Source: a virus (Duplodnaviria; Caudoviricetes). Taken from it: a stretch of 42,604 nt of DNA. The notes beneath the pieces were generated by a model, which worked only from the letters and a program-made list of their open reading frames with translations, had not been told where the DNA came from and made no database searches. Shown here piece after piece: positions 3,187 to 42,604 of the stretch (the stretch's first letter is position 1; every line of letters starts with the position of its first letter). The DNA is taken from IMG/VR virus record IMGVR_UViG_3300037851_000393, positions 1 to 42,604 of that record, one strand, 5' to 3'. Position numbers and translations under genes: made by a program.

Positions 3187-3983
3187 TACGTCACTTCCTC
3201 GATGTCAAACTGGACCACGAGGTACGTGAGGGTGCCCGTGACGCTCGTGAGACGGACGGCGACGTCGTCACCGGCCACCAGCCCCACGCTCAGCCCGGCT
3301 GACGACTGCCAGGTAGTCGAGGGTGTCAGCTCCGACCCAATGATGTCCGACGAGGAGTTCTTCCGCCCGTTGACGGTACACGATCCCGTCCCGATCTGGA
3401 TTGAGCGCACCTTCTTGATAGTGAACGACCCCGACGCCACGAAGAACGGGAAGGTCGTCGTCCCGGACGGCGGGTTGTGGATGACGAATGCCATCTCCCG
3501 GTGGACCGTACCCCCGCCCGACGGGGACGCCGAGGGCGACGCGCTGAGCGAGGCCGAGGGTGACTGGCTCGCCGAGGGCGACTGGCTGGCGCTCGGGCTT
3601 GTAGTCGCGGACGGCGAAGCGCTGGGTGACAGCGACGCCGACGGGCTCTCGCTCGCCGACGGGGATTGAGATGCCGACGCGGAGAGGCTCGGGCTGGCGG
3701 ACGGCGACGTGCTGGCCGACGGCGAGCTTCCGCCCCCACCGGTCGGGGCGGCGGCGACCCACTCCCCGGCGCCGTCGTCCCACGTGAGGACGTCGCCGTC
3801 GTTCGGCGTCGGTGCGTTGACGTCGAGGAGGTCGTCGAGATAGCTCGCCGACCCGCCGCCACCCGCTGGGCGCTGGTTGGAGATTCGGCCCGCGCCGACG
3901 CTTCCGACCAGCATCTGGATGGCTTTCCAGTACGGCCCGAGCGGCGACGCGCGCTGCGTGGTGGCTAGACGGCGAACGCCCAC
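3186..3983 (-). CDS. Tail-fibre-like protein with Ser/Pro-rich tract
   Basis: LDDLLDV...PNDGDVLTWDDGAGEW fibre-type motif, about 70-aa (SPSASx)n tract, C-terminal beta-rich domain. Confidence 0.7.
   Translation of the reverse strand: MGVRRLATTQRASPLGPYWKAIQMLVGSVGAGRISNQRPAGGGGSASYLDDLLDVNAPTPNDGDVLTWDDGAGEWVAAAPTGGGGSSPSASTSPSASPSLSASASQSPSASESPSASLSPSASPSATTSPSASQSPSASQSPSASLSASPSASPSGGGTVHREMAFVIHNPPSGTTTFPFFVASGSFTIKKVRSIQIGTGSCTVNGRKNSSSDIIGSELTPSTTWQSSAGLSVGLVAGDDVAVRLTSVTGTLTYLVVQFDIEEVT
3520..3730 (-). repeat. Coding Ser/Pro/Ala tract, degenerate 18-nt unit (approximate bounds)
   Basis: (SPSASx)n in translation. Confidence 0.9.
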
Positions 3984-6742: not shown

Positions 6743-7759
6743 CTAGCTCCTCACGAAGGTCTGCTGCGTGCCGTCGCTCATGTGGAGCACGACGTGAAGT
6801 ACGTCGATCGGGGGTGCGAGGGACGGTGACGCCGACTCCGATCCGCTCGCGCTCGACGACGCGCTTTCGCTCGACGAGCCACTCTCAGAACCCGATTCGC
6901 TGGACGACGGTGAGGCGCTGATGCTCGAACTGGACGAGGCACTCGCGCTCGAAGACGGCGAGGCTGAGCCCGACGAGGAAGACGAAGGTGAGCCGCTCGC
7001 GCTCGACGAGGCGGAGGACGACGCGGACGGCGTGGTGACCACGGCCGGCGTCACGGGGTCCTTCAGGTGCTTCAGGTCGTCGAGAAGCCGGGCGTAGTCG
7101 AACCCGGCGGGCGAGACGCCCTGTGCGTTTAGCGAGAGGTCGTTGAGCACCGCGTAGTTCTCGTCGGAGTACTTGAGGAAAAAGTCGTAGGACATCGACA
7201 TCTTCCGGCCCCACGAAATAGTGGTGATCCTGCGGGTCGCGTCGTCGTACCCGACAGCCACGACGTAGTGCCCGTTGCGCGGGTTCGGCGCACCGTACAG
7301 GACGGTCCAGGGCCCGAAGACCCCGCCGTCGGGCAGCGACAGCCCGAGGCCCGACGACCCGAACAAGTGGACCGCCAGCCGCAGCTCGTCGAGGTTGGGC
7401 GAGATCGAGACGAACGCTTCGACTTTGTCGCCCGCGATCCCGGTGTTGCGCCAGTAGTTCAGCATGTCGAGGAGGTACACGCCGGTGTCCGCGCCGCCCG
7501 TGATGGCGAAATACGCCGCCTTGACCTGGTCGGTCGTCGGAGTGACAGGACCTTTCCCGTAGGTTGACCACGACTGGATCTGGTGCGCGGCTCCTGCGGG
7601 CCCGCAGCACCCGAGGACGTCGTTGGCGTACATCGGCCAAGCCGGGACGTTCGAATAGCGGTCGACCTTCGGCGGCGGCGCCGTCAGGCGGACCGGCAGG
7701 TAACGGGCGAACCGGAGGGTACGGCTGTCGTGCTTGACGGGGAGCTTACCTAGTTTCAT
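6743..7759 (-). CDS. Papain-like cysteine peptidase with Ser-rich C-terminal tract
   Basis: NDVLGCCGPAGAAH (catalytic Cys region), GHYVVAVGYD (catalytic His) and ISWG; ATG at 7759 in a TGATG overlap. Confidence 0.7.
   Translation of the reverse strand: MKLGKLPVKHDSRTLRFARYLPVRLTAPPPKVDRYSNVPAWPMYANDVLGCCGPAGAAHQIQSWSTYGKGPVTPTTDQVKAAYFAITGGADTGVYLLDMLNYWRNTGIAGDKVEAFVSISPNLDELRLAVHLFGSSGLGLSLPDGGVFGPWTVLYGAPNPRNGHYVVAVGYDDATRRITTISWGRKMSMSYDFFLKYSDENYAVLNDLSLNAQGVSPAGFDYARLLDDLKHLKDPVTPAVVTTPSASSSASSSASGSPSSSSSGSASPSSSASASSSSSISASPSSSESGSESGSSSESASSSASGSESASPSLAPPIDVLHVVLHMSDGTQQTFVRS
6820..7035 (-). repeat. Coding Ser-rich tract (approximate bounds)
   Basis: PSASSSASSSASGSPSS... in the peptidase. 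Confidence 0.85.
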
Positions 7760-8157: not shown

Positions 8158-10316
8158 TACGTGTTCCACCCCAGTCCGTTGCCCGAGTTCCAGAGATCGG
8201 TCCGTTCCGATGAATCGAGGCAGTAGTCCCACGTCGCGAACTGATCCAGATACGCCTTCGTTGGCGAACCTGCGCCCCAGTAACTGCCGGCCCGGTCCCA
8301 ACCGTACACGCATCCCACCGAGTTGTTCTTGATCGCGGCGGTGGTCCCCGCGGTCCCGCTCGTCGCCAACAGGGTATTGTCGCAGTAGATGCGCACGTAC
8401 TTGTCACTCGGGTCGTAGGTCATGATCGCAAGGTGCCACGCGTCGTCGAAGAAGCTGGTGCCGGTCGTGAACGCGGATACTACGTTGCCGGCGGTGTCAC
8501 GCACGAAGCCGTTTGGTCGACCAGCGGCAGAGCACCGGAAGGCCCAGCCGAGATCCGTTGCCGTATTCTCACTGCCGAACCCCACCTGCACGCCGGGATT
8601 TTCGTTCGTACGGCGGAACCACACCGCCCAGGTGGCACCGTTACCAGCGATTCCGCACTGCGCCGAGGCGTTGTACGTGTGTGAGAAATACTCGGAAGTT
8701 GCATTGAAGTCCGCGCAGTTCCCGATTTTACCCGTGGCACTCCCGACGGTGCCGTTCTCCGTCAAGTCCTGGGTCGTTGTGTCGTCCACCCGCGTGCCGC
8801 TTGCTTCTTCGAAAGACCAGTGAGTCATCGCGAGAGCGAGAAGCGGCGGGATCGACGGGCTCGGGCTCGCGCTCTCAGACGACGACGGCGACTGGCTGGC
8901 CGAGGAGCTGGCGCTGATCGACGCGCTCGGCGACTGGCTGGCCGACGGTGACTGCGACGCGGAGGGAGAAGACGAGAGGCTGCGGCTCGGGCTGGCCGAC
9001 GGGGACGCGCTTAGCGAGAAGGACGGCGACATGCTGGTCCCGAAGAACGCAGGCATCGCCTCGCCACCGTTCCAGAGCGCGGCGCGCTCGTCCGCGTTGA
9101 GTGCCTTGTTGAAGACGAGTGCGTGACTGAGCTGGCCGGTCATATAGCCTGCCGCGCTAGTCCCGAGGTAGAAGTTGGTCGCGTTCCCGGAGTCCGCCCC
9201 GGTCCGGGAACACCTCTCCGTATTGTCCACGTAGAGCTTGTGGCTAGTCCCGCCGTCGAAGGTGTAGATGGCCAGGTGCCACTCGCCAGTCGAGAAGAAC
9301 CCGCCAGAGGTATCGGACCCACCCGCCGCATACAGCCCCATCGTCTTGTTGGGGGTCGTGCCACTGTAGTTGACGCTGAATAGCCTCGACCCGTCGGACA
9401 GGGAGCTACCGCAGGAGAACAGCGACGGGTTGCCCGTGTCGGTCTCGGCTTGAAACCAGAGTGCAACGGACCGCGCCGCCCCGCTCGTGATAATGCTTGA
9501 CGCCGTGGCGTTCAGGTACTCGGAGCGCGAAGCCAGAAACCCGGCAGCTGTACCCGGGAGGTTCGCGGGCACGGTGTACGTCGTGCTCGTCACGGTGTTC
9601 GTGTCCGTCAGCGTGTTCGAGCCGTGAGAGTCTGCGCGGTTTCCGCTCGCCTCGTCCATGTTGTGATACGAGAGCAGCCGGTTGCCGTCCTTGAAGTCAG
9701 ACGACAGGTCGGCGTATGCCCGGCCCCGCCCGCGGTTGAAGAGATATTCCAACCCCGCGTCGGTCAGGCAGTAGTTCCACACCCCGGCCCTGCTGATGTT
9801 GCCGGTGAAGTAGGAGCCGATGAAGCCCGCGTAGCCATACGCGAGCTTGTCGTACGTGCCGAGCCACCTCGGGTGCGCCGCCAGCGCCGAGGTGACGACT
9901 GGAGTGCCGAGGTCTACGCTGATCGACCCCATCTTCGTATCCGGGTGGTAACGCAGTACGATGAAGTGCCAGAGCCCGTCGTTTAGCATTTCAGGCCACG
10001 CCGCAGTTGGTCCCTCTGTATTGCTGTTCATCGTGAGGACGAGCCACCCTACCTGGGAGTTTCCATCCCCCAGCGTGAACCCGGAGCCCCAGATCCAGTA
10101 CTCGCCGAGAACGTGGTACCACTCATTCGGCGTCGCGTCGGTCGGGATGCGCATCCAGAATGCCGAGGTCACGCCCCAGCCCCAGTCAAGCGAGTCGCCG
10201 TTGAAGGCGTCGTTCTGCAGCTTCTCAGAGTTCGCCTTGTTGAACGTGGCGACCACGGCATCCGGCCCGACGCCCGGGAACTTGACCGTGTTGTTGTTTG
10301 TGAGGTTCAGTGCCAT
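8157..10316 (-). CDS. LamG/concanavalin-A-like multi-domain tail protein with Ser/Pro tract, 719 aa
   Basis: Three repeats with WHFIVLRY / WHLAIYTFD / WHLAIMTYD cores and LFNRGRG / LWNGGE / LWNSGNG ends; DEASGNRAD and EEASGTRVD starts. Confidence 0.8.
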   Translation of the reverse strand: MALNLTNNNTVKFPGVGPDAVVATFNKANSEKLQNDAFNGDSLDWGWGVTSAFWMRIPTDATPNEWYHVLGEYWIWGSGFTLGDGNSQVGWLVLTMNSNTEGPTAAWPEMLNDGLWHFIVLRYHPDTKMGSISVDLGTPVVTSALAAHPRWLGTYDKLAYGYAGFIGSYFTGNISRAGVWNYCLTDAGLEYLFNRGRGRAYADLSSDFKDGNRLLSYHNMDEASGNRADSHGSNTLTDTNTVTSTTYTVPANLPGTAAGFLASRSEYLNATASSIITSGAARSVALWFQAETDTGNPSLFSCGSSLSDGSRLFSVNYSGTTPNKTMGLYAAGGSDTSGGFFSTGEWHLAIYTFDGGTSHKLYVDNTERCSRTGADSGNATNFYLGTSAAGYMTGQLSHALVFNKALNADERAALWNGGEAMPAFFGTSMSPSFSLSASPSASPSRSLSSSPSASQSPSASQSPSASISASSSASQSPSSSESASPSPSIPPLLALAMTHWSFEEASGTRVDDTTTQDLTENGTVGSATGKIGNCADFNATSEYFSHTYNASAQCGIAGNGATWAVWFRRTNENPGVQVGFGSENTATDLGWAFRCSAAGRPNGFVRDTAGNVVSAFTTGTSFFDDAWHLAIMTYDPSDKYVRIYCDNTLLATSGTAGTTAAIKNNSVGCVYGWDRAGSYWGAGSPTKAYLDQFATWDYCLDSSERTDLWNSGNGLGWNT
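8855..9035 (-). repeat. Coding Ser/Pro tract between LamG domains (approximate bounds)
   Basis: SPSASQSPSASQSPSAS... Confidence 0.9.
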
Positions 10317-10323
10317 GCAGTCC

Positions 10324-11205
10324 TCAGTAGTACAGTCCGAAGCCGGAGTCCCACAGGTCGGAGCGCTCCTGGACGGTCAGGACGCGACTCCAGTACCCTA
10401 CCTCATCGATCCGGTTCGTCGACCATGACGATCCCGAGAGTCCACCCAGGTACAATGTCGCCGCGGTAGCGTCGCGCGTCCCGGAGCTAAGCGCAGGTCC
10501 AGTGTTGCTCGCATTATTGATCCCGTCCCTCACGTAGAGATAGGGGGTCTTATTGTCCGCGTTGTAACTCGCGATTATTAGAGCCCAGTGCGGGCCTGAA
10601 GCGTAGCTGACCCAGTCGTTGTAGAATCCTGAAGCCGATTGGTACTCGGAGCCATTGCCAACTACGAAAGAACCATAATACCCGCCGTTAACGATATACG
10701 CCTGGGTCTGGTTGGGGTAAGCTGCCGCACAGAACAATAGCGCCCCGCTGTTCGCTGGGTTTCCCGGATACCCATCGAAGCCGTACACCCACAGGGAGAG
10801 GGTGTAGCTCGCGGCGAACACGAAGTTCGGGATTGTCAGTGTCCTCTGCTCCGTGGCGACGAAGTTCGCCGCGTTTCCGCGCCTACCCGCCGCGTACCCG
10901 GGGTCTCCCGGCCATTCGGCAAGGAAATCCTTCGAGGTAGCGTCGACGCTATCGTAGCGCGTTCCTCGCGTCTCGTTCATGGCCCAATATGACGTGACGT
11001 CTCCAAGCGTCGAGTGCCCGCCGAACGGCGCATAGGCCGGAGCGGAGGGGCTCGCGCTCGCGCTTGCAGACGGCGAAACGCTCGCGGACGGTGATTGGCT
11101 GGCCGAAGGGCTCACGCTGATGCTTGAGCTGGGGGCGTACATACTGTTCGCCCCCAGGTCCGCGTTGAGCGGCCAGTACACCTTGATGTTCTTGAGCATG
11201 GGCAT
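10324..11205 (-). CDS. LamG-like tail protein with short Ser/Pro tract, 293 aa
   Basis: SYWAMNETRGTRYDS, TLSLWV, IDEVGYWSRVLT...LWDSGFG. Confidence 0.75.
   Translation of the reverse strand: MPMLKNIKVYWPLNADLGANSMYAPSSSISVSPSASQSPSASVSPSASASASPSAPAYAPFGGHSTLGDVTSYWAMNETRGTRYDSVDATSKDFLAEWPGDPGYAAGRRGNAANFVATEQRTLTIPNFVFAASYTLSLWVYGFDGYPGNPANSGALLFCAAAYPNQTQAYIVNGGYYGSFVVGNGSEYQSASGFYNDWVSYASGPHWALIIASYNADNKTPYLYVRDGINNASNTGPALSSGTRDATAATLYLGGLSGSSWSTNRIDEVGYWSRVLTVQERSDLWDSGFGLYY
11045..11135 (-). repeat. Coding Ser/Pro tract (approximate bounds)
   Basis: SVSPSASQSPSASVSPSASASASPS. Confidence 0.85.
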
Positions 11206-11211
11206 GGGCGG

Positions 11212-13911
11212 TTACTCCGAGGGGCTCGGGCTGAAGCTGACCGACGGCGACGGCGAGACGCTGGCCGACGGGCTTACGGAGGCCGAGGGTGACTGGCTCG
11301 CCGAGGGCGACTGGCTGGCCGAAGGCGACTGGCTGGCCGACGAGCTGGACGATGGACTTACGGAAGCCGACGGCGAGACGCTGGCCGATACGCTGGACGA
11401 CGGTGACACGCTCGGTGACTCGCTAGACGACGGAGACTCTGACGCCGACGCTGACGCCGACGGGCTCACATCGGACCGCACGAACTGGATCGCGTCCCAC
11501 TCGTTCGGGTTGTTGCCCTGGACGTGGAGTAGTGGCTTCACCACGTTGAGCGGTAGGCAGTCGGCACGCCACATCGGCCGGATCTCCACGACCGCCGTCC
11601 CGCGCTCCGGATCCCAGAGTTCGCGGCCGTACACCTGCTCCATGGTGTGCTGATCCGGCTCGCGCACGATCGAGGCGTCGAGCGTGACGAGTGGCGTGCG
11701 CGCCCCGGCCACGGTGGCGTCCGACTTGAACACGTCCACGAGCGCCGTGTAGAACGTCGCCGGCCCGATGTTTGAGGTGAAGCGCCCGACGCCGATGTAG
11801 TAGTAGGGGTCGGAGAGCGCATCGTCGCTGTCCAGCTCGATGCAGTCCGCGATGTCCTCTCCGAACGCCTCCTCTGCGGAGATCGGGTTGTACGTGACGG
11901 TCCCCGTCCATACGCGGTTCGTGTTGTCCCAGTACTCGACGGACGACGCCGCAGACGGGCTCGCGGACGGTGAGGCTGACGGTGACTGGCTGGGCGACTC
12001 CGAGCCGCTCGGGCTCGTGCTCGCAGACGGGGATACGGATGAGCTGGAGGTCGCGCTCGGGCTGACGCTGGCGGACGGACTCTCGCTTCCGGACGGCGAC
12101 GTGCTGGCAGACTCCGAGACGCTCGCGCTGGCCGAGGGCGTCTGGCTGATGCTTGCGGACGGGCTCTCGCTCGCCGACGGAGTCACGCTCGGGCTAGCGG
12201 AAGGGCTGGCGCTGCCCGACGGGCTCACCGACGCTGAGGCGGTCGAGCTGGCGGACGCCGACGGCGACGTACTGGCCGACGGTGACGTGCTGGCCGACGG
12301 TGACGTGCTAGCCGAGGGGCTCGCCGAGGAGCTTGGGCTCAACGACGGGCTGTTGGTCGAGCTGGGGCTCGCGGACGGCGTCGGGCTCTCGCTTGCGGAA
12401 GGGCTGTAGCTCGCGGAAGGCGACTGACTCGATGACGGGCTCTGCGACGCGGATGTCGATCCCAGGGGCACGAGCCGCTTCAGGTACCACTCTAGGAAGT
12501 CGGTCACGGGATCCGTGATCGTGTGGTTCTTCACCACGACCCTGATGTGGAACCTCTCTCCGGCGTTATAGGAGTGCGTCCCGAGGCTCTTCTCCTTGCC
12601 GCCAGCACCACCGCCCGCGCCGAACACCATCTTGCAGCTCGTGAGGTAGCCTTGCTCCTCGACCATCGGCTGCTCGGATGACTGCGAGGCCGAGAAGTCC
12701 CCGGATGAGCCGGTGGTGACCCACCCTGACTGTGTCAGGTCGTAGTTTCGGGTAAGAACCGTATAGTCCCCGCCGTCCTGCGCCGCGAGGCCATGGTACG
12801 AGAGGTTCGGGTAATTCTCCAGAACTCGGTATACGTTGTTGTCACCGGGACGCGGAGACCACGCATCTTGCAGCCGGGAGTGCTCGAAGCTGCGACCCTT
12901 GTCGATCAGCGCAAGGCCCTGGAGTTCGGGGTTCCACGGCGCGTCGATCCGGTATGCCGCCCACCCGAGGCACGAGTACGGGCGCAAATCGAACACCTCG
13001 TCCGTTGCCTTGAACGACTCAGGCTCGTAGGTTCGGGTGAGGACTTGTCCCGCTCGGCGCTCTAACCGTCGCGCTCCCCACCCCTCGGGCGTGACGCTCG
13101 GGCCGCGAGGGTGCGACAAGTAGACCTTCTCCCCGATAGCTGCGGGGTTCTGGTCCACGAACGTCTTGGGCGTGATGACGTTCCGCGCGCGACGCATCAG
13201 GCGCAGCTCGTAGGACGTGGTGGCGCGGACATTTTCGACGTAGCCGCCGAGGTCCTCGACTTCCAGCGTAACGCTGAGGTACGGCACGCGCAGCTTGTGG
13301 AAAGCATGACCCGGGGTGAAGATCGCACCGGACGAGAGATTGACGCCGATGGCGAAGTGGTTGACGTCGTCCAGAGTGAACGGCCCGCCTTCCGGGTGAG
13401 CAGTCAGCTCGACGGTAGTGTGTTTGAGACTATACCCTCCGTTCGTGTTGATGTTGACGTAGTGCCCGTCGGACTGGTCCCACCCCGGGAACGTGTGGCT
13501 GATCCCGCCGAGGTTTATGTAGCTCCCGGTCCGGCCCCTGAACGCGATCGACATCGAGGGAGCGCCCGAGGTATACGGAGGGAAGATCCACGGCGCTTCC
13601 TCTGGGTTGGGGCCCTCACCCATGGTGGAGGAGCGGTCGAAACCAGAGGAGATCGTGACCTTGGTGAACCGTACGAGCGTCGGCCCCGGCTCGAACCCGA
13701 CGATATGCGAGGTGCCGCCGCCGTACCACCAGCCGCCCCAGAAATATGCGTAGTAGCCAACGCGACCGTAGGTGTCGGCGTAGTCCGCCGACCAGATATC
13801 GTGCAGCTCCGCGCTCGGCGCGTTCACCCACGGATATGGAGACGTCCCTGGGTCGCGCAGGCTGCTACTATAGACGGTATAGGTCGGGCGGAGCTGGAGA
13901 GTACGTTTCAT
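11212..13911 (-). CDS. Large minor tail / tail-tip protein with two Ser/Pro tracts, 899 aa
   Basis: Long ORF downstream of the tape measure; internal tract of about 170 aa and C-terminal tract of about 85 aa. Confidence 0.75.
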   Translation of the reverse strand: MKRTLQLRPTYTVYSSSLRDPGTSPYPWVNAPSAELHDIWSADYADTYGRVGYYAYFWGGWWYGGGTSHIVGFEPGPTLVRFTKVTISSGFDRSSTMGEGPNPEEAPWIFPPYTSGAPSMSIAFRGRTGSYINLGGISHTFPGWDQSDGHYVNINTNGGYSLKHTTVELTAHPEGGPFTLDDVNHFAIGVNLSSGAIFTPGHAFHKLRVPYLSVTLEVEDLGGYVENVRATTSYELRLMRRARNVITPKTFVDQNPAAIGEKVYLSHPRGPSVTPEGWGARRLERRAGQVLTRTYEPESFKATDEVFDLRPYSCLGWAAYRIDAPWNPELQGLALIDKGRSFEHSRLQDAWSPRPGDNNVYRVLENYPNLSYHGLAAQDGGDYTVLTRNYDLTQSGWVTTGSSGDFSASQSSEQPMVEEQGYLTSCKMVFGAGGGAGGKEKSLGTHSYNAGERFHIRVVVKNHTITDPVTDFLEWYLKRLVPLGSTSASQSPSSSQSPSASYSPSASESPTPSASPSSTNSPSLSPSSSASPSASTSPSASTSPSASTSPSASASSTASASVSPSGSASPSASPSVTPSASESPSASISQTPSASASVSESASTSPSGSESPSASVSPSATSSSSVSPSASTSPSGSESPSQSPSASPSASPSAASSVEYWDNTNRVWTGTVTYNPISAEEAFGEDIADCIELDSDDALSDPYYYIGVGRFTSNIGPATFYTALVDVFKSDATVAGARTPLVTLDASIVREPDQHTMEQVYGRELWDPERGTAVVEIRPMWRADCLPLNVVKPLLHVQGNNPNEWDAIQFVRSDVSPSASASASESPSSSESPSVSPSSSVSASVSPSASVSPSSSSSASQSPSASQSPSASQSPSASVSPSASVSPSPSVSFSPSPSE
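11215..11465 (-). repeat. Coding C-terminal Ser/Pro tract (approximate bounds)
   Basis: (SPSASQ/V)n up to the stop codon. Confidence 0.9.
11945..12460 (-). repeat. Longest coding Ser/Pro tract, about 170 aa (approximate bounds)
   Basis: SPSAST x3 and related units; 18-nt periodicity visible near 12260-12310. Confidence 0.9.
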
Positions 13912-22037: not shown

Positions 22038-23576
22038 TTACGCCACGTCCAGAATGACGCCCGCGGCGCCGAGTTCGTGGTGCGCAAAGATGACCGCGTT
22101 CTCCTGGCTGCCCAGCGACGGCGATGGCGAGACGCTGCTCGACGCGCTGAGCGAGGGGCTGCGGCTTGGGCTCGCCGACGGGCTGGCCGACGCCGACGGA
22201 GAAGCCGATGCCGACGGGCTGCCGGACGCCGAGGCCGACGGGGACTGAGACGCCGAGGACGACGCGGACGTTGAGGCCGACGGCGACTGCGTCGCGGAAG
22301 GCGACGCCGAGGACGACGCGGACGGAGATGCCGAGAGCGACGGGGACGCCGACAGGCTGGCTGACGGGGACGCCGACGCCGACGGACTCACCGAGGCTCC
22401 GTCCCACGTCCACGAGATCGTCCGGTAGCGCCGCGCGTCGGCGGTAGTGACCCGCTCCGCGGTCCCCGGCTCAGTGAACTGGGAGGACGTGCCGACCGTG
22501 ACCCAGGTCGTCTTGTCGTGGGACGTGCGCACGTTGACCGTGAGACCGGAGTGATCCCCGAGCCACAGCTCCGGGACGTGGATGTCGGCGAACGAGTCGT
22601 TGAGCCCGACCCGCGCCAGCCGTCCACCGGTTCCGCCCGTCGTAATGTTGACGCCGGTCAGCGTGAACGTCGTCGCCGATGGCACCGTCGCGACCTCGGC
22701 CGAGCCGAAGAGCCCAGAGTTGATGTCTGGCACCGCGCCGACGTGGCCGGCGATGAACACGCGGTCACCGACCTGCAGCTCGTGGGCCTGAGAGGTCGTG
22801 ATGACGTCGCTCGCGTTCGACGAGGTGATCCCAATCGAGCGCATGCGTGCGACCGTTCCCCCGGTACCCGCGACCGAGACGTTCACGACCGTGAACGTGT
22901 AGGCCGACGGGACGCTCACGACGAGGTGCCCGGCGGAGCCGTCGAGGCTGTTAAGGCTCGGGGTCGACCCGGTGTGCCCCGCGATGAACGCGAAGTCGCC
23001 TACCTTGAGGCCGTGCTGCGTCCGGGTGGTGATGACGCCGGGGTTGCCGACGGCCGACGAGATGATGTCGACGGCCGGGTCCGGGAACATCGAGTCGGCC
23101 GGGGTCGCCTCGCCGTCGCCGTTCGCTGTGACCTCGTCGAGGCCGTGGAGTACGTGGCCGAAGATTCGCTTGCTGTTGATGACGTGCTCAGCCATGCCGA
23201 CGGTCAGACCGTCGCGCTTCGCGCCGCGGTTGAACTTGGACACGTAGGTGCCGTTCAGCATGATCGAGCCCTGGCCCACGTCGTCGCCGCCGAGGCAGAC
23301 CGCGACGAGCTGCGGAGGGGTGTTCGGGTTCTGCGGCGGGGTGACTGGCTCCATGTACGCCTGGAGCATGCCGACCGCGCGGTCATCGTACAGGCCCTCG
23401 CCGGTGTTGAACATCAACTTGGCGATACCGATCGGGGTGTTCTCCTCGAAGTTGTCACCGAAGGTGTGCGTCTCCTCGATGATGTTCTCCTCCTCGATAC
23501 TCATCTGGTAGCTATCGCCCGATACGTCCACGCCTCCGACGAGGAAGCGGATTTTGGAGGGTGTTGAGAGAGCCAT
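22038..23576 (-). CDS. Major-tail/tail-tube-like protein with two FCCH-like accessory domains and a Ser/Pro tract, 512 aa
   Basis: Canonical position between terminator and chaperone; IEETHTFGDNFEENTPIGI motif; two ITT..HxLxVGD..FIAGH repeats; AAGGAG RBS. Confidence 0.75.
   Translation of the reverse strand: MALSTPSKIRFLVGGVDVSGDSYQMSIEEENIIEETHTFGDNFEENTPIGIAKLMFNTGEGLYDDRAVGMLQAYMEPVTPPQNPNTPPQLVAVCLGGDDVGQGSIMLNGTYVSKFNRGAKRDGLTVGMAEHVINSKRIFGHVLHGLDEVTANGDGEATPADSMFPDPAVDIISSAVGNPGVITTRTQHGLKVGDFAFIAGHTGSTPSLNSLDGSAGHLVVSVPSAYTFTVVNVSVAGTGGTVARMRSIGITSSNASDVITTSQAHELQVGDRVFIAGHVGAVPDINSGLFGSAEVATVPSATTFTLTGVNITTGGTGGRLARVGLNDSFADIHVPELWLGDHSGLTVNVRTSHDKTTWVTVGTSSQFTEPGTAERVTTADARRYRTISWTWDGASVSPSASASPSASLSASPSLSASPSASSSASPSATQSPSASTSASSSASQSPSASASGSPSASASPSASASPSASPSRSPSLSASSSVSPSPSLGSQENAVIFAHHELGAAGVILDVA
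22115..22395 (-). repeat. Coding Ser/Pro tract in the tail-tube-like protein (approximate bounds)
   Basis: SVSPSASASPSASLSASPS... Confidence 0.9.
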
Positions 23577-26458: not shown

Positions 26459-27198
26459 CAGCGCACCGAGGCTACGACGTCGAGCGTCGAGTCCCTGTAG
26501 TCCCCGACCACGACGTACTTCAGGCGGATCTTGTTCCCGAGTAGCCCGTTGAGGATCGTGTTCGCCGTCATCGTCCCGTCAGTCGGGGTAGTGTTCGGCG
26601 CGAGGGCCGCGTCGAGGTTCACGGCCTGCACGAGCCGGGCCGTGAGGACCGAGAACGAGAACTGCATGATATCACACCACGTCGCCTCGTTGTCGAGGGT
26701 CGTCTGGACGTAGAGGTCGAGGGACTGGACCCCGGGGCTCGGCGACGGGCTCGCTGATCCCGAGGGCGAGGCGCTCGCCGAACTGCTCGCCGAGGCGCTG
26801 GCAGACGGCGACGTCGAGGCGCTGGACGAGGCGCTGGCGCTCGCGGACGGCGAGGCAGACGCCGACGCCGAGGCGCTGAGGCTCGAAGACGGGGACGCGC
26901 TGGCCGAGGGCGAGGCGCTGGACGACGCGCTCCCCGAGAAGCTCGGCGACGCCGACGGACTTGCTGAGGCGCTCGCGCTCGAAGACGGAGAGGTGCTCGC
27001 CGACGCGGACGCCGACGGGCTGGTCGAGGCAGAGGTGGACGCCGAGGGACTGGTCGCCGACCCGTAGGTGAAGCTGGCCTGGACGAGCAAGTAGCTCGCG
27101 GCCTCAGGCAACCGGCCGAGGCTGGTGGCGTCGGTGACGTAGGTCCCGTCCGTGTCGGGAACGGCTCCCGAGAAGAGGGTGTGGATGAAGCTGCTCAT
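26458..27198 (-). CDS. Putative virion beta-sandwich protein; paralog of 27195..27614 carrying an about 105-aa Ser/Pro insert
   Basis: Shared GTYVT, GRLP, YVQTxLDxEATWCD, TPTDG..TANTIL.GL.G and KYVVVG. Confidence 0.75.
   Translation of the reverse strand: MSSFIHTLFSGAVPDTDGTYVTDATSLGRLPEAASYLLVQASFTYGSATSPSASTSASTSPSASASASTSPSSSASASASPSASPSFSGSASSSASPSASASPSSSLSASASASASPSASASASSSASTSPSASASASSSASASPSGSASPSPSPGVQSLDLYVQTTLDNEATWCDIMQFSFSVLTARLVQAVNLDAALAPNTTPTDGTMTANTILNGLLGNKIRLKYVVVGDYRDSTLDVVASVR
26735..27060 (-). repeat. Coding Ser/Pro/Ala tract inserted in a paralog (approximate bounds)
   Basis: TSPSASTSASTSPSASASAS...PSPSP. Confidence 0.9.
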
Positions 27199-33779: not shown

Positions 33780-33791
33780 CTTAGCCCTCCA

Positions 33792-35044: not shown

Positions 35045-35322
35045 CAGTTATGGTGTCTCGGTGCCGGAATCTTCGCTTCGAACTCCGCGTAGCTCATCTC
35101 GGAGCCTCCACCTCCGATCGGTCCGACGATGAACCGACCTCTGGAAGCCTGGATGGTGTTGATCCCTCGCTTCCGTCTGCGCCCTTGGTAGGGCTTGTAC
35201 TGGATGACGTGGCACCCCGTACCGCCGCAGTCGAGGCAGATGACGGCTCGACCTGGGCCTTCACACATGCCGCTGTATAGACCGGACCCGTCGCACGACC
35301 CGCATTCTGTGTCGATCTTCAT
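35044..35322 (-). CDS. DnaJ-type zinc-finger small protein, 92 aa
   Basis: CGSCDGSG and CLDCGGTG (two CxxCxGxG); ATG at 35322 overlaps the thyX stop. Confidence 0.7.
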   Translation of the reverse strand: MKIDTECGSCDGSGLYSGMCEGPGRAVICLDCGGTGCHVIQYKPYQGRRRKRGINTIQASRGRFIVGPIGGGGSEMSYAEFEAKIPAPRHHN

Positions 35323-36098
35323 GCTCGCCCCTCGTCGAACAGCGCCAGCGTACGCGGGAACTTCTCTGACAGGACGGAGTGCACCGCGTTCGCGTACTGC
35401 CGGATCTCCCACTGCGCGTTCTCGGCCATGCGGAGCTTCAGGAACCCGAGCCAGTTGCGTAGGTTCGCGGACGCCCGCATCCGGGAGTAGCGCCCGACCG
35501 TCACGGCGAGGCGGGCAATCTCCTTAGGCACGCCGGCCCGAAGCCCGCTCTGGTAGACGTGCTCGGCGCGGGCGTAGAGGTCGCTCAGGTCCTGCGACCA
35601 CGCTCCGAACGTCACGCGGCGCTGCTCCTCCAGCGGCGGTTCCCCGAACGCGCCGCCCACGGACTGCGCCTGCTTGTTCGCGCCGCCCGAGATCAGCATC
35701 CGCTCGACGGTCGGGAGGTAGTTCACGTCGGGCATCGGGGTATAACGAGCGGACAGCTCGTTGTAGCTCTGCGTCCGATGCCGGTGCCACTCCCGGAATA
35801 CGAAGATCGGAGCCTGGACCTCGACTGTCGCCCCGCCCATCTCGAACGGCGTGTAGTGGTCGTGCTCCCAGAGGTAGCGAAGCAGCTTCTCGTCGCCCGG
35901 AACGGAGCACGTCCCTCCACACTTCGAACACGCACAGTCCTCGGGAGCTGGGTCCGCATCAACGACGCAGGTCGGGCAGGCCTTCGGACCCCAGCCCTGG
36001 AAGCCCTTGTTCGTGCTCATCCGCGCGGCCTCGATGATCCGCTCGTCGGAGCCCCACGTCTCGATCAGCTCGACGCTGCCGTGGTCGAGGAGTTTCAC
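35319..36098 (-). CDS. thyX: FAD-dependent thymidylate synthase ThyX
   Basis: H.TPFE, APIFVFREWHRHRTQSYNELSARY, GVPKEIAR, NLRNWLGFLKLR...AQWEIRQYA. Confidence 0.96.
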   Translation of the reverse strand: MKLLDHGSVELIETWGSDERIIEAARMSTNKGFQGWGPKACPTCVVDADPAPEDCACSKCGGTCSVPGDEKLLRYLWEHDHYTPFEMGGATVEVQAPIFVFREWHRHRTQSYNELSARYTPMPDVNYLPTVERMLISGGANKQAQSVGGAFGEPPLEEQRRVTFGAWSQDLSDLYARAEHVYQSGLRAGVPKEIARLAVTVGRYSRMRASANLRNWLGFLKLRMAENAQWEIRQYANAVHSVLSEKFPRTLALFDEGRA

Positions 36099-37024: not shown

Positions 37025-38977
37025 CTATCTTACAGCAGCCGGGGCCTGAAGTACACCCTTGAGCAACTCGGGGAACCGACCCTTCGTCAACCCCCACCCC
37101 GGAACACAGTCCGCTTCGGTCCAGCCCCGCGTGAACCGCTGGTTGCGGAACTGCTCGCGGCTCCAGCGGCTCGGCGTCAGGTTGTCGCCGTGCCGGATGT
37201 CGATGTTCGGCTGCGCGCTCATCCACGCCTCGGAGGTCAAGTCATCGACGCGCTCGGGTCGTCGGTGCGTCCCAGGCTCGAAGCCCATCTTTCGGTTGAA
37301 GCCGTTCTTCTCGATCAGCTCAACCCGCTTTCGGAAGTGCGTGAGCAGCGTGTTGCGCCGCGCACAGAGGCCGCTGAGCTGGCGCACGTAGTAGAACAGC
37401 GCGCGTCCTGATTCGGCGTCCACCTTCCATACGTTCTCGTTGTACCAGTAGCCCGTCGTGATTCCGAACTCATCCGTTCGCGGCGGGGTGAAGTCGAAGT
37501 GGCTGGGGTGGTAGAGGACGTCGTGCTCGCAGAAGTAGATCACCTCGGCCGTACTCGCTTCAAGCCCCACGAGGATCTGCTTTGCCATTGTGAGGTAGCC
37601 GCGCTCGAGCGGGAGAACGACGTTTCGCATGTTGCGGGCGGCGTCGCAGAAAAACGCGGTCGGCTCAAGCGTCACCGCGACGATCGGGAGCTCCCCGCTC
37701 GCTCGGCGGAGCTGATCGCGACACGCCGTCAGCACCTCGCCTGGGGCGTGCGCGTCGCTGTAGTAGATGACGCCTTTGGTTGGGCTCGTACCCAGATTGG
37801 GTACGATCATACCCGGATTGGGTACGACCACCTTGGGAATGAAGAGATCCGGTATCACCTTCGCGACCTCAGTCGGGATAACCACCCGTGCCTCAAGCGC
37901 CTGCTCGTCGCTCGGCACCGGCCCCTCGGGCGCGGCGGTCGGCTCCGGGTCCGGCTCCGGCGCGATACGCTTGCCCGTGATCCGGTTTATTTCGTCCCGG
38001 TTCGGCTTGATCTTATGGAGCAGCTCGAACGCCGCGCCCTTCGCCCGCACCTTCTCGAACGCCGCGCCCGACCACCCGGGCACGGGCCAGAAATGCTCGA
38101 CGAGCCACGAGAGCGGGCGGACCTGGCCGCGCCACTTGTTCTCGAACCAGAGGGACTGGCTGTGCTTCCGCGCCTTGTCGACGTCGCGCCCGCGCAGCTC
38201 GTACGGGAACCCGAAGTCACCGCCCTGCGTCCGGAACATGTGCGCGAACCACGTGCGCTTGTTCGTCACCATCCGCCCGCCGGAGAGCCACGACTTGCAG
38301 CCCAGCTCGGTACCCATCTGGCCCCACGAGCCGTGGCCCTCGTCCATCCCGTCCAGCTGCCAGTACCGCTCGCGTTCGAGGAACCAGCAAGCCCCGAGGC
38401 AGCTCATGGTGTCCGCGATCTCGCCGCGGCCCTCAGGCCGCTTCTGCCACTCCGGGAAGTACTGGAAGTGGAGCGTCTCGTCGAAGCGCCACGCGGTCGT
38501 AAGGCGCTTCTCGCGCCGCTTCCAGACCATCTCGCGCTTCGGGCTCGGGGCCCCGCACTTGTCGCACTTCACCGGGGTCGGACCCTGGTAAGTGCGATTC
38601 GCGCAGGAGCCGCACACCCAGTCGAACGCGTGGAGGTTGTACTGCTGGGGAATCTGCGTGACGTTGCGACCCAGCTCGCCGGCCGCGCGGATCAGCTCAA
38701 CGTCGAACCCCTCGGCCACCATGCAGTGGGCGTCGAGCTTCATCACGTACCGCGCGTCGGAGAGCCGCGCCGCGAGGTTCGTAGCGGCCCGCTGCCCGAT
38801 CGAGTCTGGCAGGATCACGACGGTCAAGCGGTCGTGCTGGGTGAGTGGCTCGACCGCCGGGGCGCCGTCGAGGACGACGATCACCTCGGTCTCGGCTCGG
38901 GCGTTCGCGAGGACGTCCTCGACGGTACGCCTGAGGAACATCTCGTTGCGGGCGGGAATGAGGACGGAGAGGTCCAT
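37025..38977 (-). CDS. Two-domain glycosyltransferase: N-terminal GT-A resembling polypeptide GalNAc-transferases (GT2/GT27-like) plus a second GT-A domain
   Basis: SVLIPARNE, EVIVVLDG, KLDAHC (DxH), DEGHGSWGQMGTELGCKSWLSGG, AHMFR...FPY; second domain IYFCEHDVLY. ATG at 38977 in a TGATG overlap. Confidence 0.88.
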   Translation of the reverse strand: MDLSVLIPARNEMFLRRTVEDVLANARAETEVIVVLDGAPAVEPLTQHDRLTVVILPDSIGQRAATNLAARLSDARYVMKLDAHCMVAEGFDVELIRAAGELGRNVTQIPQQYNLHAFDWVCGSCANRTYQGPTPVKCDKCGAPSPKREMVWKRREKRLTTAWRFDETLHFQYFPEWQKRPEGRGEIADTMSCLGACWFLERERYWQLDGMDEGHGSWGQMGTELGCKSWLSGGRMVTNKRTWFAHMFRTQGGDFGFPYELRGRDVDKARKHSQSLWFENKWRGQVRPLSWLVEHFWPVPGWSGAAFEKVRAKGAAFELLHKIKPNRDEINRITGKRIAPEPDPEPTAAPEGPVPSDEQALEARVVIPTEVAKVIPDLFIPKVVVPNPGMIVPNLGTSPTKGVIYYSDAHAPGEVLTACRDQLRRASGELPIVAVTLEPTAFFCDAARNMRNVVLPLERGYLTMAKQILVGLEASTAEVIYFCEHDVLYHPSHFDFTPPRTDEFGITTGYWYNENVWKVDAESGRALFYYVRQLSGLCARRNTLLTHFRKRVELIEKNGFNRKMGFEPGTHRRPERVDDLTSEAWMSAQPNIDIRHGDNLTPSRWSREQFRNQRFTRGWTEADCVPGWGLTKGRFPELLKGVLQAPAAVR

Positions 38978-39657
38978 CACTTCCCGACCCTCTTGGGCGG
39001 GTTTTTCTCGTAGTCGGTCGGCTCCTTCTCTACTTCGTCCGCGTTGAAGTGGTACGTCTTCCCACCAACGCGCACGCTCGGGTTTCCCCACGCGTCGAAC
39101 GATGTCACCTTCCCGATCTTCCCAACTTGTGCCCTGGCATCCGCGCGGAAGGTCGGACCAGCGTATTTCGCGACGGCGACGTCTTTGATGCGGACGACCG
39201 TTCCCTTATCCAGCCCGCCGGGCTCGGCGTGCCCTTCTCGGAACTGGGACTTGTCGAATACGACCACTTGCTTCAAGTCTTCTTGATTCCGACCGAAGAA
39301 CGCCTGTCCCTTCCTGATGACGATCCCGTCGTGTCCGTCCTTCTTGATCTGTTCCAGGTCCAAGTCTCGCAGGCTCTCGGTATTCGCGGCCTCGATAACG
39401 TATGGGTTCTTCATGCGGACCGAGACGGGCCGTACCTCTCCGAAGTGTCCGGCGAGCGTCTTAGTAGGGGCAACGTAGATCCCCTCGCCCAGCAAAAACT
39501 CCCTCCCAAACTTCGCCTGCTGCTCCACGGATAAGCCGCCGTATACCCCCTCGCCGCGGAACCCGTTTAAAACGATAGGTTGACCCGTCTTCACCTGGTC
39601 CCAGCGCCCCGCGGTCCACTGGTTCCCTCTGAACGGGTGCCCCGGTTTATCGCCCAT
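38977..39657 (-). CDS. Leader-bearing ART-like protein (polyvalent-protein ART type) with SH3/KOW-like C-terminus
   Basis: MGDKPGHPFRGNQW leader; FRGEG...GEGIYVA...A..FG.V..V.VRMKNP...GHDGIVI...QVVVFDKSQ. Confidence 0.72.
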   Translation of the reverse strand: MGDKPGHPFRGNQWTAGRWDQVKTGQPIVLNGFRGEGVYGGLSVEQQAKFGREFLLGEGIYVAPTKTLAGHFGEVRPVSVRMKNPYVIEAANTESLRDLDLEQIKKDGHDGIVIRKGQAFFGRNQEDLKQVVVFDKSQFREGHAEPGGLDKGTVVRIKDVAVAKYAGPTFRADARAQVGKIGKVTSFDAWGNPSVRVGGKTYHFNADEVEKEPTDYEKNPPKRVGK

Positions 39658-39659
39658 TT

Positions 39660-40292
39660 CTATTTCTCCCCGCGCAGATACCAGCCGCCGACCCGCTTCG
39701 CCTTCTTGGGATCGAGTAGGACGGTTACGTTCTGCTCTCTGTCGCTGCTGAACGACGGGTGGGTGTAGGTGGCGTACAGTGCGCCGGCGGCCCGGGCGCG
39801 CGCGAACCCGGTAGCGAGCGCCGCCTCTAGGTCGTCGCCCTCCATGATGGCCTCGTTCACCTCGTCGTTGATGTCCACGGCCTTGCCGCGCGGGAGACTC
39901 ACGGTCGCGACGTGCGCGTCCGACTCCGGGCCGTGGCCGGTGAGCGCCTTGCCCTCGGCGTACCCGACTGCCTCATCGTAGTGGTCCACCAGATACAACT
40001 CGCCGCCCTTGAAGTCACCGGTGTCCCGCGAACCGTGGTAGAGCCGCCCGCCAGCCTCGGGTTTGAACGTCGCGCGGCCGCCCGCCGGGTCGCGCCCGTC
40101 GCCGTCCCCGGCTCGAGACCTGCCGGGCGCGACATAACTCTCCTCGTGCGAACCGGCCAGGGCCGCGCGGCCCGAACGGGAACCTTCTGACCAGTCGCCC
40201 TTCTTCACCACGGCTGCTGCTGCGGCCCTGCCTCCGGTCCTGGCGCTGGTCCACTGGTTGCCCCGGAACTCGTGCCCCTGCTTGTCACCCAT
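39660..40292 (-). CDS. Leader-bearing ART-like protein
   Basis: MGDKQGHEFRGNQW leader; LYHGS...LYL...EAVGYA...V..V.L...VTVLLDP. Confidence 0.68.
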   Translation of the reverse strand: MGDKQGHEFRGNQWTSARTGGRAAAAAVVKKGDWSEGSRSGRAALAGSHEESYVAPGRSRAGDGDGRDPAGGRATFKPEAGGRLYHGSRDTGDFKGGELYLVDHYDEAVGYAEGKALTGHGPESDAHVATVSLPRGKAVDINDEVNEAIMEGDDLEAALATGFARARAAGALYATYTHPSFSSDREQNVTVLLDPKKAKRVGGWYLRGEK

Positions 40293-40295
40293 GTT

Positions 40296-41222
40296 CTATT
40301 CTACCCCACCCGTAGCCCAAAAGTCTCTGCTGATCCGGCTCCAATTGAAGCGCGCCGCCGCAGCCTTCCGCTCGGCCTCCGTCACGTACCGCCCGCCCGT
40401 CTGGAACAGCGCCACGAGATCGAGCGTCACGGACTTCGGGTCGCGCTCCGCGACGTACTCGGCCCAGTCGCCGAACCACTGACGGTAGTGCGGCTGGTCG
40501 TACATCACGGGCCTCGCGCCGCAGAGCAGGCCCTCAGCCGCCGGCAGTTCGAATCCCTCGTGGCGGCGCAAGCCACTCACGAACCGGCACCGGCGATACA
40601 TCGCCGCCAGCTCCTCGTCGGAGATCCCCGTCTTGAAGATCGTCTCGGACTTCATCGAGTACTGAGGCCCGAGCTGAAACACCTTGGCCTTGAGCGCGGC
40701 AGCGGCGTCGTCGCACTCCCCGACGCCCTCCTGGCTCCGCCGGAAGCCAGACGTGCACACCAGGACGTCCCTCGCGACCGCGGGCTCCGGCGTGAACACC
40801 GAGGCGTCGACTCCGAGCGGCGCGTGGTAGAAGTTGAAGTCGACCGGATCACCTCCGTCCGCGGCGATCCAGTCCGCGATCGGGTAGTAGCTCCAGACGA
40901 CCGTGGCGTCTCGCCACAGCTCGCGCCACTGGTTCGTGCTCGGCTGCCTCGTCGTACGAAGCGCGATCTGGACCACCGCGAACTTCTGGCCGCGCTTGCG
41001 GCACCGATCGGCCTGGTAGTAAAAATGGTCGTGCAGCCCGTTCACGAGCATCACCAGCACGTCGCCGTCGGCTTCGCCCTCGATAGGTCGCGAGCGGTGC
41101 ACGTCCTTGCGGATGGTCTCCGGGCGGGCGACCTCATGGCCCAGGAGCGACGCATCCGCGGCCAACGCGTCCGAGATGCGCTGGATGGCGCGCGAGTGGT
41201 GGGTGGGAACGATGAGCTTCAT
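40296..41222 (-). CDS. GT-B fold (GT4 / group 1-like) glycosyltransferase
   Basis: PLGVDASVF.P, ISDEELAAMYRRC, EGFELPAAEGLLCGA (Ex7E), A..FNW. Confidence 0.9.
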   Translation of the reverse strand: MKLIVPTHHSRAIQRISDALAADASLLGHEVARPETIRKDVHRSRPIEGEADGDVLVMLVNGLHDHFYYQADRCRKRGQKFAVVQIALRTTRQPSTNQWRELWRDATVVWSYYPIADWIAADGGDPVDFNFYHAPLGVDASVFTPEPAVARDVLVCTSGFRRSQEGVGECDDAAAALKAKVFQLGPQYSMKSETIFKTGISDEELAAMYRRCRFVSGLRRHEGFELPAAEGLLCGARPVMYDQPHYRQWFGDWAEYVAERDPKSVTLDLVALFQTGGRYVTEAERKAAAARFNWSRISRDFWATGGVE

Positions 41223-41257: not shown

Positions 41258-42061
41258 TTAGGCCCCTCCGATGAAGTTACGAACCTTCTTCATCGCCTTT
41301 TTCAGGTTGTCCTGATAGGTGCGCAGGTGCTGATACTCGCTCGCGACGTGGAAGTCAATACCGCGGCGGCGGGCCTCTTGATCGCGCCAGCTCGACGTAA
41401 GCGCGCGCTCACGCTCCTCGGGGATGGTAGTCGGGCGCGCCCCCGCGAAGCTAGGGTGCCATACCTCGGCCTCCCCCATGCGCCACCCCTTCTCGCTCTC
41501 GACGATGGGCGGACGCGGGAGCGCATCGATCTCCTTCAGCACCTTCTCGGCCTTTTGGATTCGACCTTCGGATTCCTTGATCTTGGTCTCCCAGCCGCGC
41601 GCGGTCTTCACCGCTGAAGTCATGCCCTTGAACGTGGTCTTGTCCGTGATGCCTCCGAGGATTTTCTCCGCACTACGAACCCCCTCCAGCGTCACGCTTC
41701 CATCCGGGTGCTTCACGTAGTAGTGGTGAACGATCTCACGGCCGGTGCCCGTCGAAAAGCCAGACTGGTCCCAGTCGCTCACGCGCTTGGCGACCACACC
41801 CTCGTCGGTTCCGGTGTCCACGTCCGCGATCATAGACTTCCACTCGTAGCCGACGATGGCCGTGCCAGGCACGGAGCCCTTGATGGCGTGATTCAGTCTC
41901 GACTTGGCGGGCACCGAATCATCGACATATAGTGCTGATTCTTCGCGTACGCGCCAGTCGCCAGACTGCGCCACTCCCCGCCCAGCGCCTGAGCCGCTTC
42001 GGCTAGACGTCCACTGGCCTCCGGTCGGGTTTCCCGCAGGGACGCGAGGCTGGGTGCTCAC
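41258..42061 (-). CDS. Hypothetical protein with QPRVPAGNPTGGQWT leader, 267 aa
   Basis: GTG at 42061 overlaps the methyltransferase stop (GTGA), placing the motif at the N-terminus; the longer track ORF overlaps the upstream gene. Confidence 0.7.
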   Translation of the reverse strand: MSTQPRVPAGNPTGGQWTSSRSGSGAGRGVAQSGDWRVREESALYVDDSVPAKSRLNHAIKGSVPGTAIVGYEWKSMIADVDTGTDEGVVAKRVSDWDQSGFSTGTGREIVHHYYVKHPDGSVTLEGVRSAEKILGGITDKTTFKGMTSAVKTARGWETKIKESEGRIQKAEKVLKEIDALPRPPIVESEKGWRMGEAEVWHPSFAGARPTTIPEERERALTSSWRDQEARRRGIDFHVASEYQHLRTYQDNLKKAMKKVRNFIGGA

Positions 42062-42604
42062 CTGCTCGCTCGCAGCGGGAAAGCGTTCGCGCGGCGGGCG
42101 ATCAGCGTGCCGCGACCCGAGTAGCGCATGTCGTCGAAGTGCCATACGTGCCACCCAGTATAGTCGAAGTCCTGCATTCCGTGCATCGCGTAGTTGTCTA
42201 CGACCAACCAACCGTTGGTCGTAAGCTTCGGTACCGCGACCTTGGCCAGCTCCAGGCGGTTGACGATCCGCCCGCGCCGCAGCGTTGGGTCGGCATGGTC
42301 CACGAGGAGCAGGTCGAAGCTCGCGTCAGGCATCGCGGCCACGCGCTGGAGCGCGTCGGCGTGTGGCGTCGCGATCAGCTCGACCTTGCCGCGGACCCCG
42401 TGCCGTTCGAGTGCCGCAGCGGTGGCCGGCGCCCAAGCCGGGTCGGTCTCGACGGACGTAACGTGCGGCACGCGCTTCGCCCAGAAGATAGTGCTGCCTC
42501 CGGACCCGAGTTCCAGGACGCGGTTTGGGTATCGCGCGTCTCGCATCTCGGATGTCTCTTTTCGGAGCACGCCGGGCTGGAGGATGTACTGCTCCAGAGC
42601 GATC
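42058..42604 (-). CDS. Class I SAM-dependent methyltransferase, 5' end outside the window
   Basis: VLELGSGGST, VTSVETD, FDLLLVD, LTTNGWLVVDN; the frame is open to the window edge. Confidence 0.9.
   Translation of the reverse strand, partial: IALEQYILQPGVLRKETSEMRDARYPNRVLELGSGGSTIFWAKRVPHVTSVETDPAWAPATAAALERHGVRGKVELIATPHADALQRVAAMPDASFDLLLVDHADPTLRRGRIVNRLELAKVAVPKLTTNGWLVVDNYAMHGMQDFDYTGWHVWHFDDMRYSGRGTLIARRANAFPLRASR

Follow-up and report, generated by a model that had tools for sequence, protein, structure and literature searches.

The virus record analysed here in full (the window; 42.6 kb, 66% GC) encodes a two-domain glycosyltransferase of 650 aa, P0001 (37025..38977, minus strand; ATG at 38977, stop at 37025), whose N-domain is most similar in profile and structure comparisons to the ppGalNAc-Ts of family GT27. 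Eight tracts of the (Ser-x)n Ser-Pro-Ser type, distributed over seven ORFs on the minus strand, are encoded in the structural module of the same window; a preliminary description of this DNA had missed them. From the gene content it is very probable that the glycosyltransferase cassette to which P0001 belongs glycosylates these tracts, and sequence and model together point to the N-domain as the probable initiator of this O-glycosylation. The best reading of its anatomy and context is that the N-domain would work like a GT27 initiator without being a GT27 member by definition, given that three GT27 features are absent from P0001, namely the CBM13 lectin, the membrane anchor and the GalNAc-specificity residues.

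The ATG of P0001 overlaps the stop codon of the upstream ORF (TGATG). Domain and PHROG searches identified capsid, scaffold, MuF, connector, terminator and tape-measure genes in the window, and neither a terminase nor a portal was found among the 40 ORFs scanned. For this reason, and because just 3.6 kb of sequence remain between P0001 and the upstream end, the contig is probably partial. The family is large, with 3785 relatives of P0001 at E ≤ 0.001 among the 7999 candidates scored and 637 representatives that match its first 339 residues at E ≤ 1e-10. Pfam recognised only a GT2-type N-terminus in P0001, NCBIfam gave just sub-threshold GT2 matches, PHROGs assigned no family, and the matches in the ESM Atlas were viral clusters labelled GT2 and nothing else. 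No match to the enzyme was found among 50,697 records of cultured phages, and no further paralog of P0001 in the window.

Fold and active site of the N-domain

The N-domain (clade A) comprises residues 1-305 (38063..38977, minus strand). In a single-sequence search against the PDB, ppGalNAc-Ts were the top 6 of 10 matches (best E 1.8e-4), and with a 95-sequence profile they were the top 15 of 36 (E 5e-12 to 3.5e-6), the first bacterial GT2 ranking after all 15 at E 6.1e-6. These rankings indicate that the GT27 order of motifs, on which the preliminary description was built, is not due to chance. The Foldseek comparison suggested there was carried out with the AlphaFold model of P0001 (mean pLDDT 87.3), and all of the 29 matches listed were ppGalNAc-Ts. 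Among 48,161 representative chains, the N-domain aligned to mouse GalNAc-T1 with Z 26.9 (rmsd 2.5 Å, 265 residues aligned) and to Toxoplasma GalNAc-T3 with Z 24.3, while the best match outside GT27 reached Z 18.9. The ppGalNAc-Ts are ahead by 8 Z units, and the outcome that had been named as contrary to a GT27 likeness, ordinary GT2 enzymes as the best structural matches, was not observed. The earlier GT27-like interpretation of the N-domain is supported, at an identity to GT27 enzymes of just 16-22%. Defined by score, clade A is not strictly monophyletic, as its ancestor node also includes 17 lower-scoring sequences in a tree of the phage clades only.

All the motifs quoted previously are present in P0001, on the minus strand of 37025-38977: SVLIP... 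(residues 4-23; 38909-38968), EVIVVLDG (residues 31-38), KLDAHC (residues 80-85; 38723-38740), the block TMSC...WLSGG (residues 190-234; 38276-38410), AHMFR (residues 245-249) and FPY (residues 257-259). Two details required correction. The interval 37990-38977 that had been assigned to the glycosyltransferase does contain the motifs, but it spans residues 1-329 and covers only the N-domain; FPY is present, but HMMER pairs F257-P258 with F369-P370 of GalNAc-T2 and not with P366-Y367.

Equivalent residues were numbered from the HMMER row of GalNAc-T2 (6nqt) and counted over 96 sequences of clade A and 91 of clade B, the single-domain paralog discussed below. The Mn triad of the ppGalNAc-Ts, for which the roles of D224, H226 and H359 are described in PMC4432651 and PMC7185993, has its equivalents in the DxH motif D82-A83-H84 (38726..38734, minus strand; D224/H226), with D82 and H84 each conserved in 95/96 clade A sequences, and in H246, conserved in 96/96; the DxH motif and distal histidine proposed earlier are indeed retained. 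According to PMC7185993, DxH is confined among GT-A families to GT27 and GT60. On the peptide side, PMC4432651 describes F280, W282 and F361 of GalNAc-T2 as the residues that recognise Pro-x-Pro, the F361A or W282A exchange almost abolishing activity. Their clade A equivalents are F171 (90/96), Y173 (95/96) and F248 (95/96). The segment F171-Q-Y173 (38459..38467, minus strand; T2 F280/W282) is the predicted first half of the Pro-x-Pro pocket, and H246-M-F248-R249 (38231..38242, minus strand; T2 H359, F361, R362) would contribute the third metal ligand, the pocket Phe and the start of the flexible loop. Y173 pairs with the Trp of W282 in the T1 row and in the single-sequence PGANT9 row, whereas the T2 row puts it on Y284, two positions off. 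The equivalents of W331, G332 and R362 (W218, G219 and R249) are each found in 95/96 clade A sequences, and those of E337 and G308 are also retained in the alignment of P0001 to GalNAc-T2.

The specificity residues of GalNAc-T2 named in PMC13071866 are Gly332, Arg208, Glu334 and Gly308, of which P0001 keeps two and has two changed. The Glu334 equivalent is lost in W218-G-Q-M-G-T-E224 (38306..38326, minus strand; T2 W331-G-G-E334-N-L-E337), and the change from WGGE to WGQM noted previously extends to the whole of clade A, where this position (residue 221) is Q, M, F or V and is acidic in 0/96 sequences. Arg208 pairs with T66 of P0001 (HMMER row, counted by hand). As no clade A sequence has an acidic residue at the Glu334 position and Arg208 is replaced, the donor site differs from that of GT27, and the N-domain looks GT27-like on its peptide side and not on its sugar side. 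These two changes tip the balance slightly towards a donor other than UDP-GalNAc. Related cassettes encode methyltransferases, and also RGP mutase, RmlD-like, DegT and UDP-sugar dehydrogenase proteins, the last four of which point to sugars other than GalNAc. The enzyme could still be a true UDP-GalNAc:polypeptide transferase, that is, a lectin-free GT27 in function in which K80, R63, N67 and Q220 replace Glu334 and Arg208, a special case of the same explanation with the donor unchanged. The invariance of K80, R63 and N67 in 95 sequences and the retention of W331, G332 and G308 equivalents speak for it, but two altered specificity residues out of four and the sugar genes of the related cassettes make it rather doubtful.

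C-domain, paralogs and the glycosyltransferase cassette

Inside the N-domain lies a four-Cys insert, CxxC-x12-CxxC (residues 122-141; 38555..38614, minus strand), which was not mentioned previously and is absent from the single-domain paralog. It is likely a zinc ribbon, in line with weak zinc-ribbon Pfam matches. The N-domain is followed by a helix and a Pro/Val-rich low-confidence linker (residues 306-397; 37787..38062, minus strand), with pLDDT below 50 over most of residues 326-395, and then by the C-domain (residues 398-645; 37043..37786, minus strand). When folded alone, the C-domain is modelled with pLDDT 95.7 as an alpha/beta, GT-A-like domain of the GT-A/nucleotidyltransferase type, in which an E-H-D motif (residues 484-486) stands where DxD would be. 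No close solved relative was found for it, as Z decreases from 13.1 to 10.2 over the 50 matches listed, with glycosyltransferases and nucleotidyltransferases mixed. Given that no solved relative stands out, the designation as a second GT rests on the fold, the E-H-D motif and the context. There is no Pfam match to a ricin lectin (CBM13) in P0001 and the C-domain model is not a ricin fold, which agrees with the earlier statement that a second GT domain takes the place of the lectin.

Related loci usually carry the single-domain paralog of about 290 aa, clade B, a companion that the preliminary description had also missed. In loci picked by clade A, clade B has 1-3 flank copies in 65/80 (range 0-3), whereas clade A is single-copy in 79/80. 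Clade B matches the ppGalNAc-Ts equally well (E 6e-12) and keeps Glu334 in 88/91 sequences, while the F171 position is G in 81/91, the F248 position is H in 73/91 and Trp331 is mostly F. From these patterns we infer a division of labour in which clade A would read the peptide and clade B the sugar. There is no clade B gene in the window. In L290, the closest cellular-bin locus (73%), clade B is located 6 kb upstream of the enzyme, beyond the homolog of the window's GT-B gene, and for this reason a clade B gene has possibly been cut off from this contig. The window's GT-B-type glycosyltransferase, in the same cassette (40296..41222, minus strand; phrog_2170, E 1e-7), has its homolog directly upstream of the enzyme in both of the closest loci, L001 and L290, and in only 4/80 enzyme loci overall at E 1e-6. 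A methyltransferase (Methyltransf_24, E 3.6e-8; 42058..42604, minus strand) is found at the contig end.

These genes bear on which enzyme acts first. The cassette may glycosylate the tracts with clade B, the C-domain or the GT-B enzyme adding the first sugar and the N-domain extending it. That clade B keeps Glu334, is as close to the ppGalNAc-Ts as clade A and in many loci is the next gene behind a tract gene is consistent with this order, as is the precedent of the Gram-positive serine-repeat adhesins, which are initiated by GT-B enzymes. Nonetheless, Trp331 and the peptide pocket are missing from clade B, the copy number of which is variable, whereas clade A keeps both and is single-copy, and the low frequency of the GT-B homolog argues against a general role in initiation. 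We consider this order of action unlikely and retain the N-domain as the probable initiator.

Six minus-strand ORFs of the window (6466-6729, 25160-25726, 33258-33779, 38977-39657, 39660-40292 and 41258-42211) share a GH-x-F-x-GNQ[WY]-like motif. They are otherwise dissimilar, the motif is at the very N-terminus in four of the six, and one has a weak ART-PolyVal match (E 7e-4). As a guess, the motif may tag ejected cargo proteins for targeting to the capsid.

Ser-Pro-Ser tracts and their association with the enzyme

The tracts of the window total 717 residues, of which 51% are Ser, 17% Ala and 14% Pro; the virion location of most tract proteins was assigned by gene position. All are on the minus strand. 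These candidate acceptors include a tract of 122 aa inside ORF 26458-27198 in the head/neck region (26719..27084) and, close to the C-terminal end of ORF 22038-23576, one of 99 aa (22107..22403). ORF 11212-13911, in the tail region, contains a tract of 176 aa (11935..12462) and a C-terminal one of 84 aa (11218..11469). The others are in ORF 10324-11205 (35 aa; 11035..11139), between the LamG domains of ORF 8157-10316 (63 aa; 8841..9029), near the C-terminus of ORF 6743-7813 (a Ser-rich tract; 6869..7060) and in ORF 3186-3983, which has a weak tail-fibre match (74 aa; 3513..3734). ORF 22038-23576 is a probable tail tube protein: it sits between the tail terminator and the tape measure, 44% identity over 136 aa links its N-terminus to 27859-28281, and its look-alikes include a Phage_tail_2-bearing cluster (20% of members), which is a lead only. 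Of these two tube-like paralogs, 27859-28281 and 22038-23576, the long one alone has extra domains and the Ser tract. The adjacent ORFs 26458-27198 and 27195-27614 are also look-alikes, the first appearing to be the second plus an inserted Ser tract of 120 aa, which makes them a natural pair with and without a tract.

The serine codons of the tracts are mixed (TCG 135, AGC 119, TCC 52, others 58), suggesting selection on the peptide and not DNA slippage. The presence of Pro at +1/+3 is not separate evidence for recognition by the pocket, since the (Ser-x)n pattern yields such prolines automatically. ppGalNAc-Ts carry an N-terminal type II membrane anchor. In P0001 the 19-residue hydropathy maximum within the first 40 residues is 0.79 and the domain begins at residue 2, and no hydrophobic leader was found in P0001 or in any of the seven tract proteins, which fits a modification in the cytoplasm before assembly.

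The co-occurrence of enzyme and tracts was examined in the best 80 of 188 viral relatives, taken with 10-kb flanks, and in 80 control loci chosen by the ThyX gene that neighbours P0001 in the window. A tract was detected by the filter within 10 kb in 63/80 enzyme loci and in 4/80 ThyX loci. For tracts of at least 45 aa the numbers are 61/80 and 1/80, the enzyme being present in the single positive control as well. Among enzyme loci with full flanks, 24/25 have a tract, and all 230 tracts are on the strand of the enzyme. The enzyme loci span 30-69% GC and are related by kinship, so that they are not independent, and for this reason no weight is given to the Fisher P value of the comparison. In the closest phage relative (L001:8534-13393; record G213) there is a very long Ser-repeat region, with 84 pattern matches over about 16 kb. 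Whole records were available for 50 of the 80 ThyX controls, the longer contigs being chosen, and G111 alone has the enzyme and G111 alone has tracts, with 90 pattern matches against 0-12, scattered, in the other 49. The degenerate pattern gives at least one chance match in 29/50 controls, and up to 12; for this reason, matches were taken as tracts only where they were numerous and on one strand.

A search starting from the tracts returned at least 132 stretches, and 89 unique records were examined; left out were 18 loci on contigs below 28 kb, the flanks of which already showed the enzyme, and three further loci. Among the matches listed, the enzyme is present in 17 of the 23 unique records that are at least 90% complete, each time in at least two copies, and the six near-complete records without it are three giant-virus bins and G002, G038 and G039. 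These last three (L239, L281, L282) are near-complete and phage-size and have a Ser-Pro-Ser tract but no GT27-like gene; a different enzyme, or one supplied by a host, may act in them. Among relatives of the capsid, 40 of 45 were examined and one has the enzyme, together with 84 tract matches, while all seven records above 45 kb have neither enzyme nor tracts and a 20-kb fragment, G220, has tracts and not the enzyme. Conversely, 17/80 enzyme loci lack a flank tract, none of which is 90% complete, and G150 (112.6 kb, 76% complete) and G149 (59 kb) have the enzyme and zero pattern matches, in a search of the whole record for 50/80 loci. Because the genes of the cassette occur as a unit, the association with tracts cannot be assigned to the N-domain specifically.

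Relatives of the enzyme also occur in GTDB genomes, where 136 were confirmed and 71 loci kept; by a hand count of titles, 42 of these name CPR groups and 13 Gammaproteobacteria or Pseudomonadales. Only 26/71 cellular loci have a flank tract, and several loci end inside one. Of seven annotated cellular-bin loci some are phage (L291, L356) and some chromosomal-looking (L297, L298, L300). In L291 the gene lies between the tape measure and a tract-bearing tail gene, that is, inside the structural module. In the chromosomal-looking L298 (11742-15121) and L300 (12529-18879), several unknown genes in a row, paralogous to one another, separate the cassette from a giant Ser-repeat gene, and a pair of SH3/IS200-like genes lies upstream. 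In Woesebacteria, one clade A gene (L293:9995-13537; 1181 aa) has an intein/Hint insertion and extra C-domain sequence.

Targets other than the tracts have to be considered, since Pfam and NCBIfam find GT2-type families only, a thymidylate synthase is encoded 1 kb downstream of P0001 and the cassette is also present in chromosomal-looking CPR loci. The enzyme would then act on the bases of phage DNA or, masking receptors, on polysaccharide of the host surface, and the tracts would be unglycosylated flexible linkers that share the history of the cassette. Given that the structure favours GT27 over polysaccharide GT2s, that the gene lies inside the structural module in other phages, as in L291, and that tract concordance is found in both control sets, this is very unlikely. 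A link of the enzyme to ThyX and DNA modification was rejected, as a homolog of the window's ThyX is in the flank of 0/80 enzyme loci. ThyX is encoded in an interval (32833-36098) that separates the glycosyltransferase cassette from the head genes and also codes for a YAcAr SLOG protein and a CxxCxxCC protein.

In the explanation that we favour, the N-domain would start the glycans by placing a sugar on serines within the Ser-Pro-Ser repeats. Its substrates would be proteins of the phage's own head and tail regions, modified in the cytoplasm of the host ahead of assembly. The transfer would be Mn-dependent and retaining, as in GT27, with Pro at +1/+3 recognised by F171, Y173 and F248. The fused C-domain, the clade B paralog and the GT-B enzyme may extend the glycan, and methyltransferases may cap it. 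The virion would thereby gain a mucin-like brush, stiffening the linkers and shielding them from proteases or altering adsorption.

Implications and comparison with known systems

To our knowledge, mucin-type initiation by GT27 is regarded as eukaryotic. We tentatively propose that a prokaryotic lineage, sister to GT27, exists in uncultured phages and CPR bacteria. Its enzymes would be soluble polypeptide O-glycosyltransferases without a lectin, and duplication may have given rise to an initiator that reads the peptide (proline pocket) and to extenders that read the sugar (Glu334); together these would build mucin-like brushes on dedicated Ser-Pro-Ser tracts grafted into many virion proteins. 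If true, serine-repeat glycoproteins could be made by a third route, and the lineage would be a candidate for the source from which mucin-type initiation in eukaryotes arose. A large phage/CPR family with the GT27 fold, the peptide pocket and mucin-like substrates of its own would make this origin testable by phylogeny and assay, and the A/B split gives a sharp and cheap prediction of the first-acting enzyme. Virion glycosylation would also be far wider than the mycobacteriophage cases, through unrelated enzymes, and a soluble enzyme reading Ser-Pro repeats in the bacterial cytoplasm would serve glycoengineering. In the open full-text literature, no description was found of a GT27-like phage/CPR enzyme with Ser-Pro-Ser virion tracts.

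With the GT27 ppGalNAc-Ts (GalNAc-T1, 8v9q/1xhb; T2; T10; Toxoplasma T3, 8uhv) the N-domain shares the GT-A fold (Z 24-27), DxH and the C-terminal His, and the equivalents of W331/G332, E337, R362 and F280/W282/F361; Ser/Pro-rich acceptors are likely common to both. GT27 enzymes have the CBM13 lectin and the membrane anchor, whereas P0001 has neither of these and differs also by the four-Cys insert, a fused GT-A-like domain, changed Glu334 and Arg208 equivalents, a phage/CPR range and the low identity given above. The GT60 polypeptide alpha-GlcNAc transferases of protists and prokaryotes share DxH and polypeptide Ser/Thr O-glycosylation with GT27, as described in PMC7185993. In a profile comparison, the GT60-type Pfam profile PF11397 matched 2/35 members of the enzyme family (best E 0.0024) and not P0001.

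In mycobacteriophages (Che8 gp108-110, Corndog, Myrna), phage glycosyltransferases O-glycosylate capsid and tail tube proteins (Freeman et al. 2023, as cited in PMC11256854, PMC12363180 and PMC13445384). The glycosyltransferases are phage-encoded in both cases; a difference, as far as these accounts go, is that the present phage has long dedicated tracts in many proteins. Che8 gp110 was rejected as a relative, as Che8 gp108-110 score at most 13 bits against the clade A, clade B and C-domain profiles, the level of generic GT2. Accessory Sec genes (SecA2/SecY2) were not found among the 40 ORFs scanned of this probably partial contig. The serine-rich repeat glycoproteins (Fap1, GspB; GtfA/B, accessory Sec), as far as the sources describe them, likewise combine alternating (Ser-x)n repeats with a multi-enzyme cytoplasmic glycosylation cluster. 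By comparison with the Fap1/GspB systems, the phage repeats are Pro-rich and belong to structural-module proteins without leaders, and the candidate initiator is GT-A/GT27-like.
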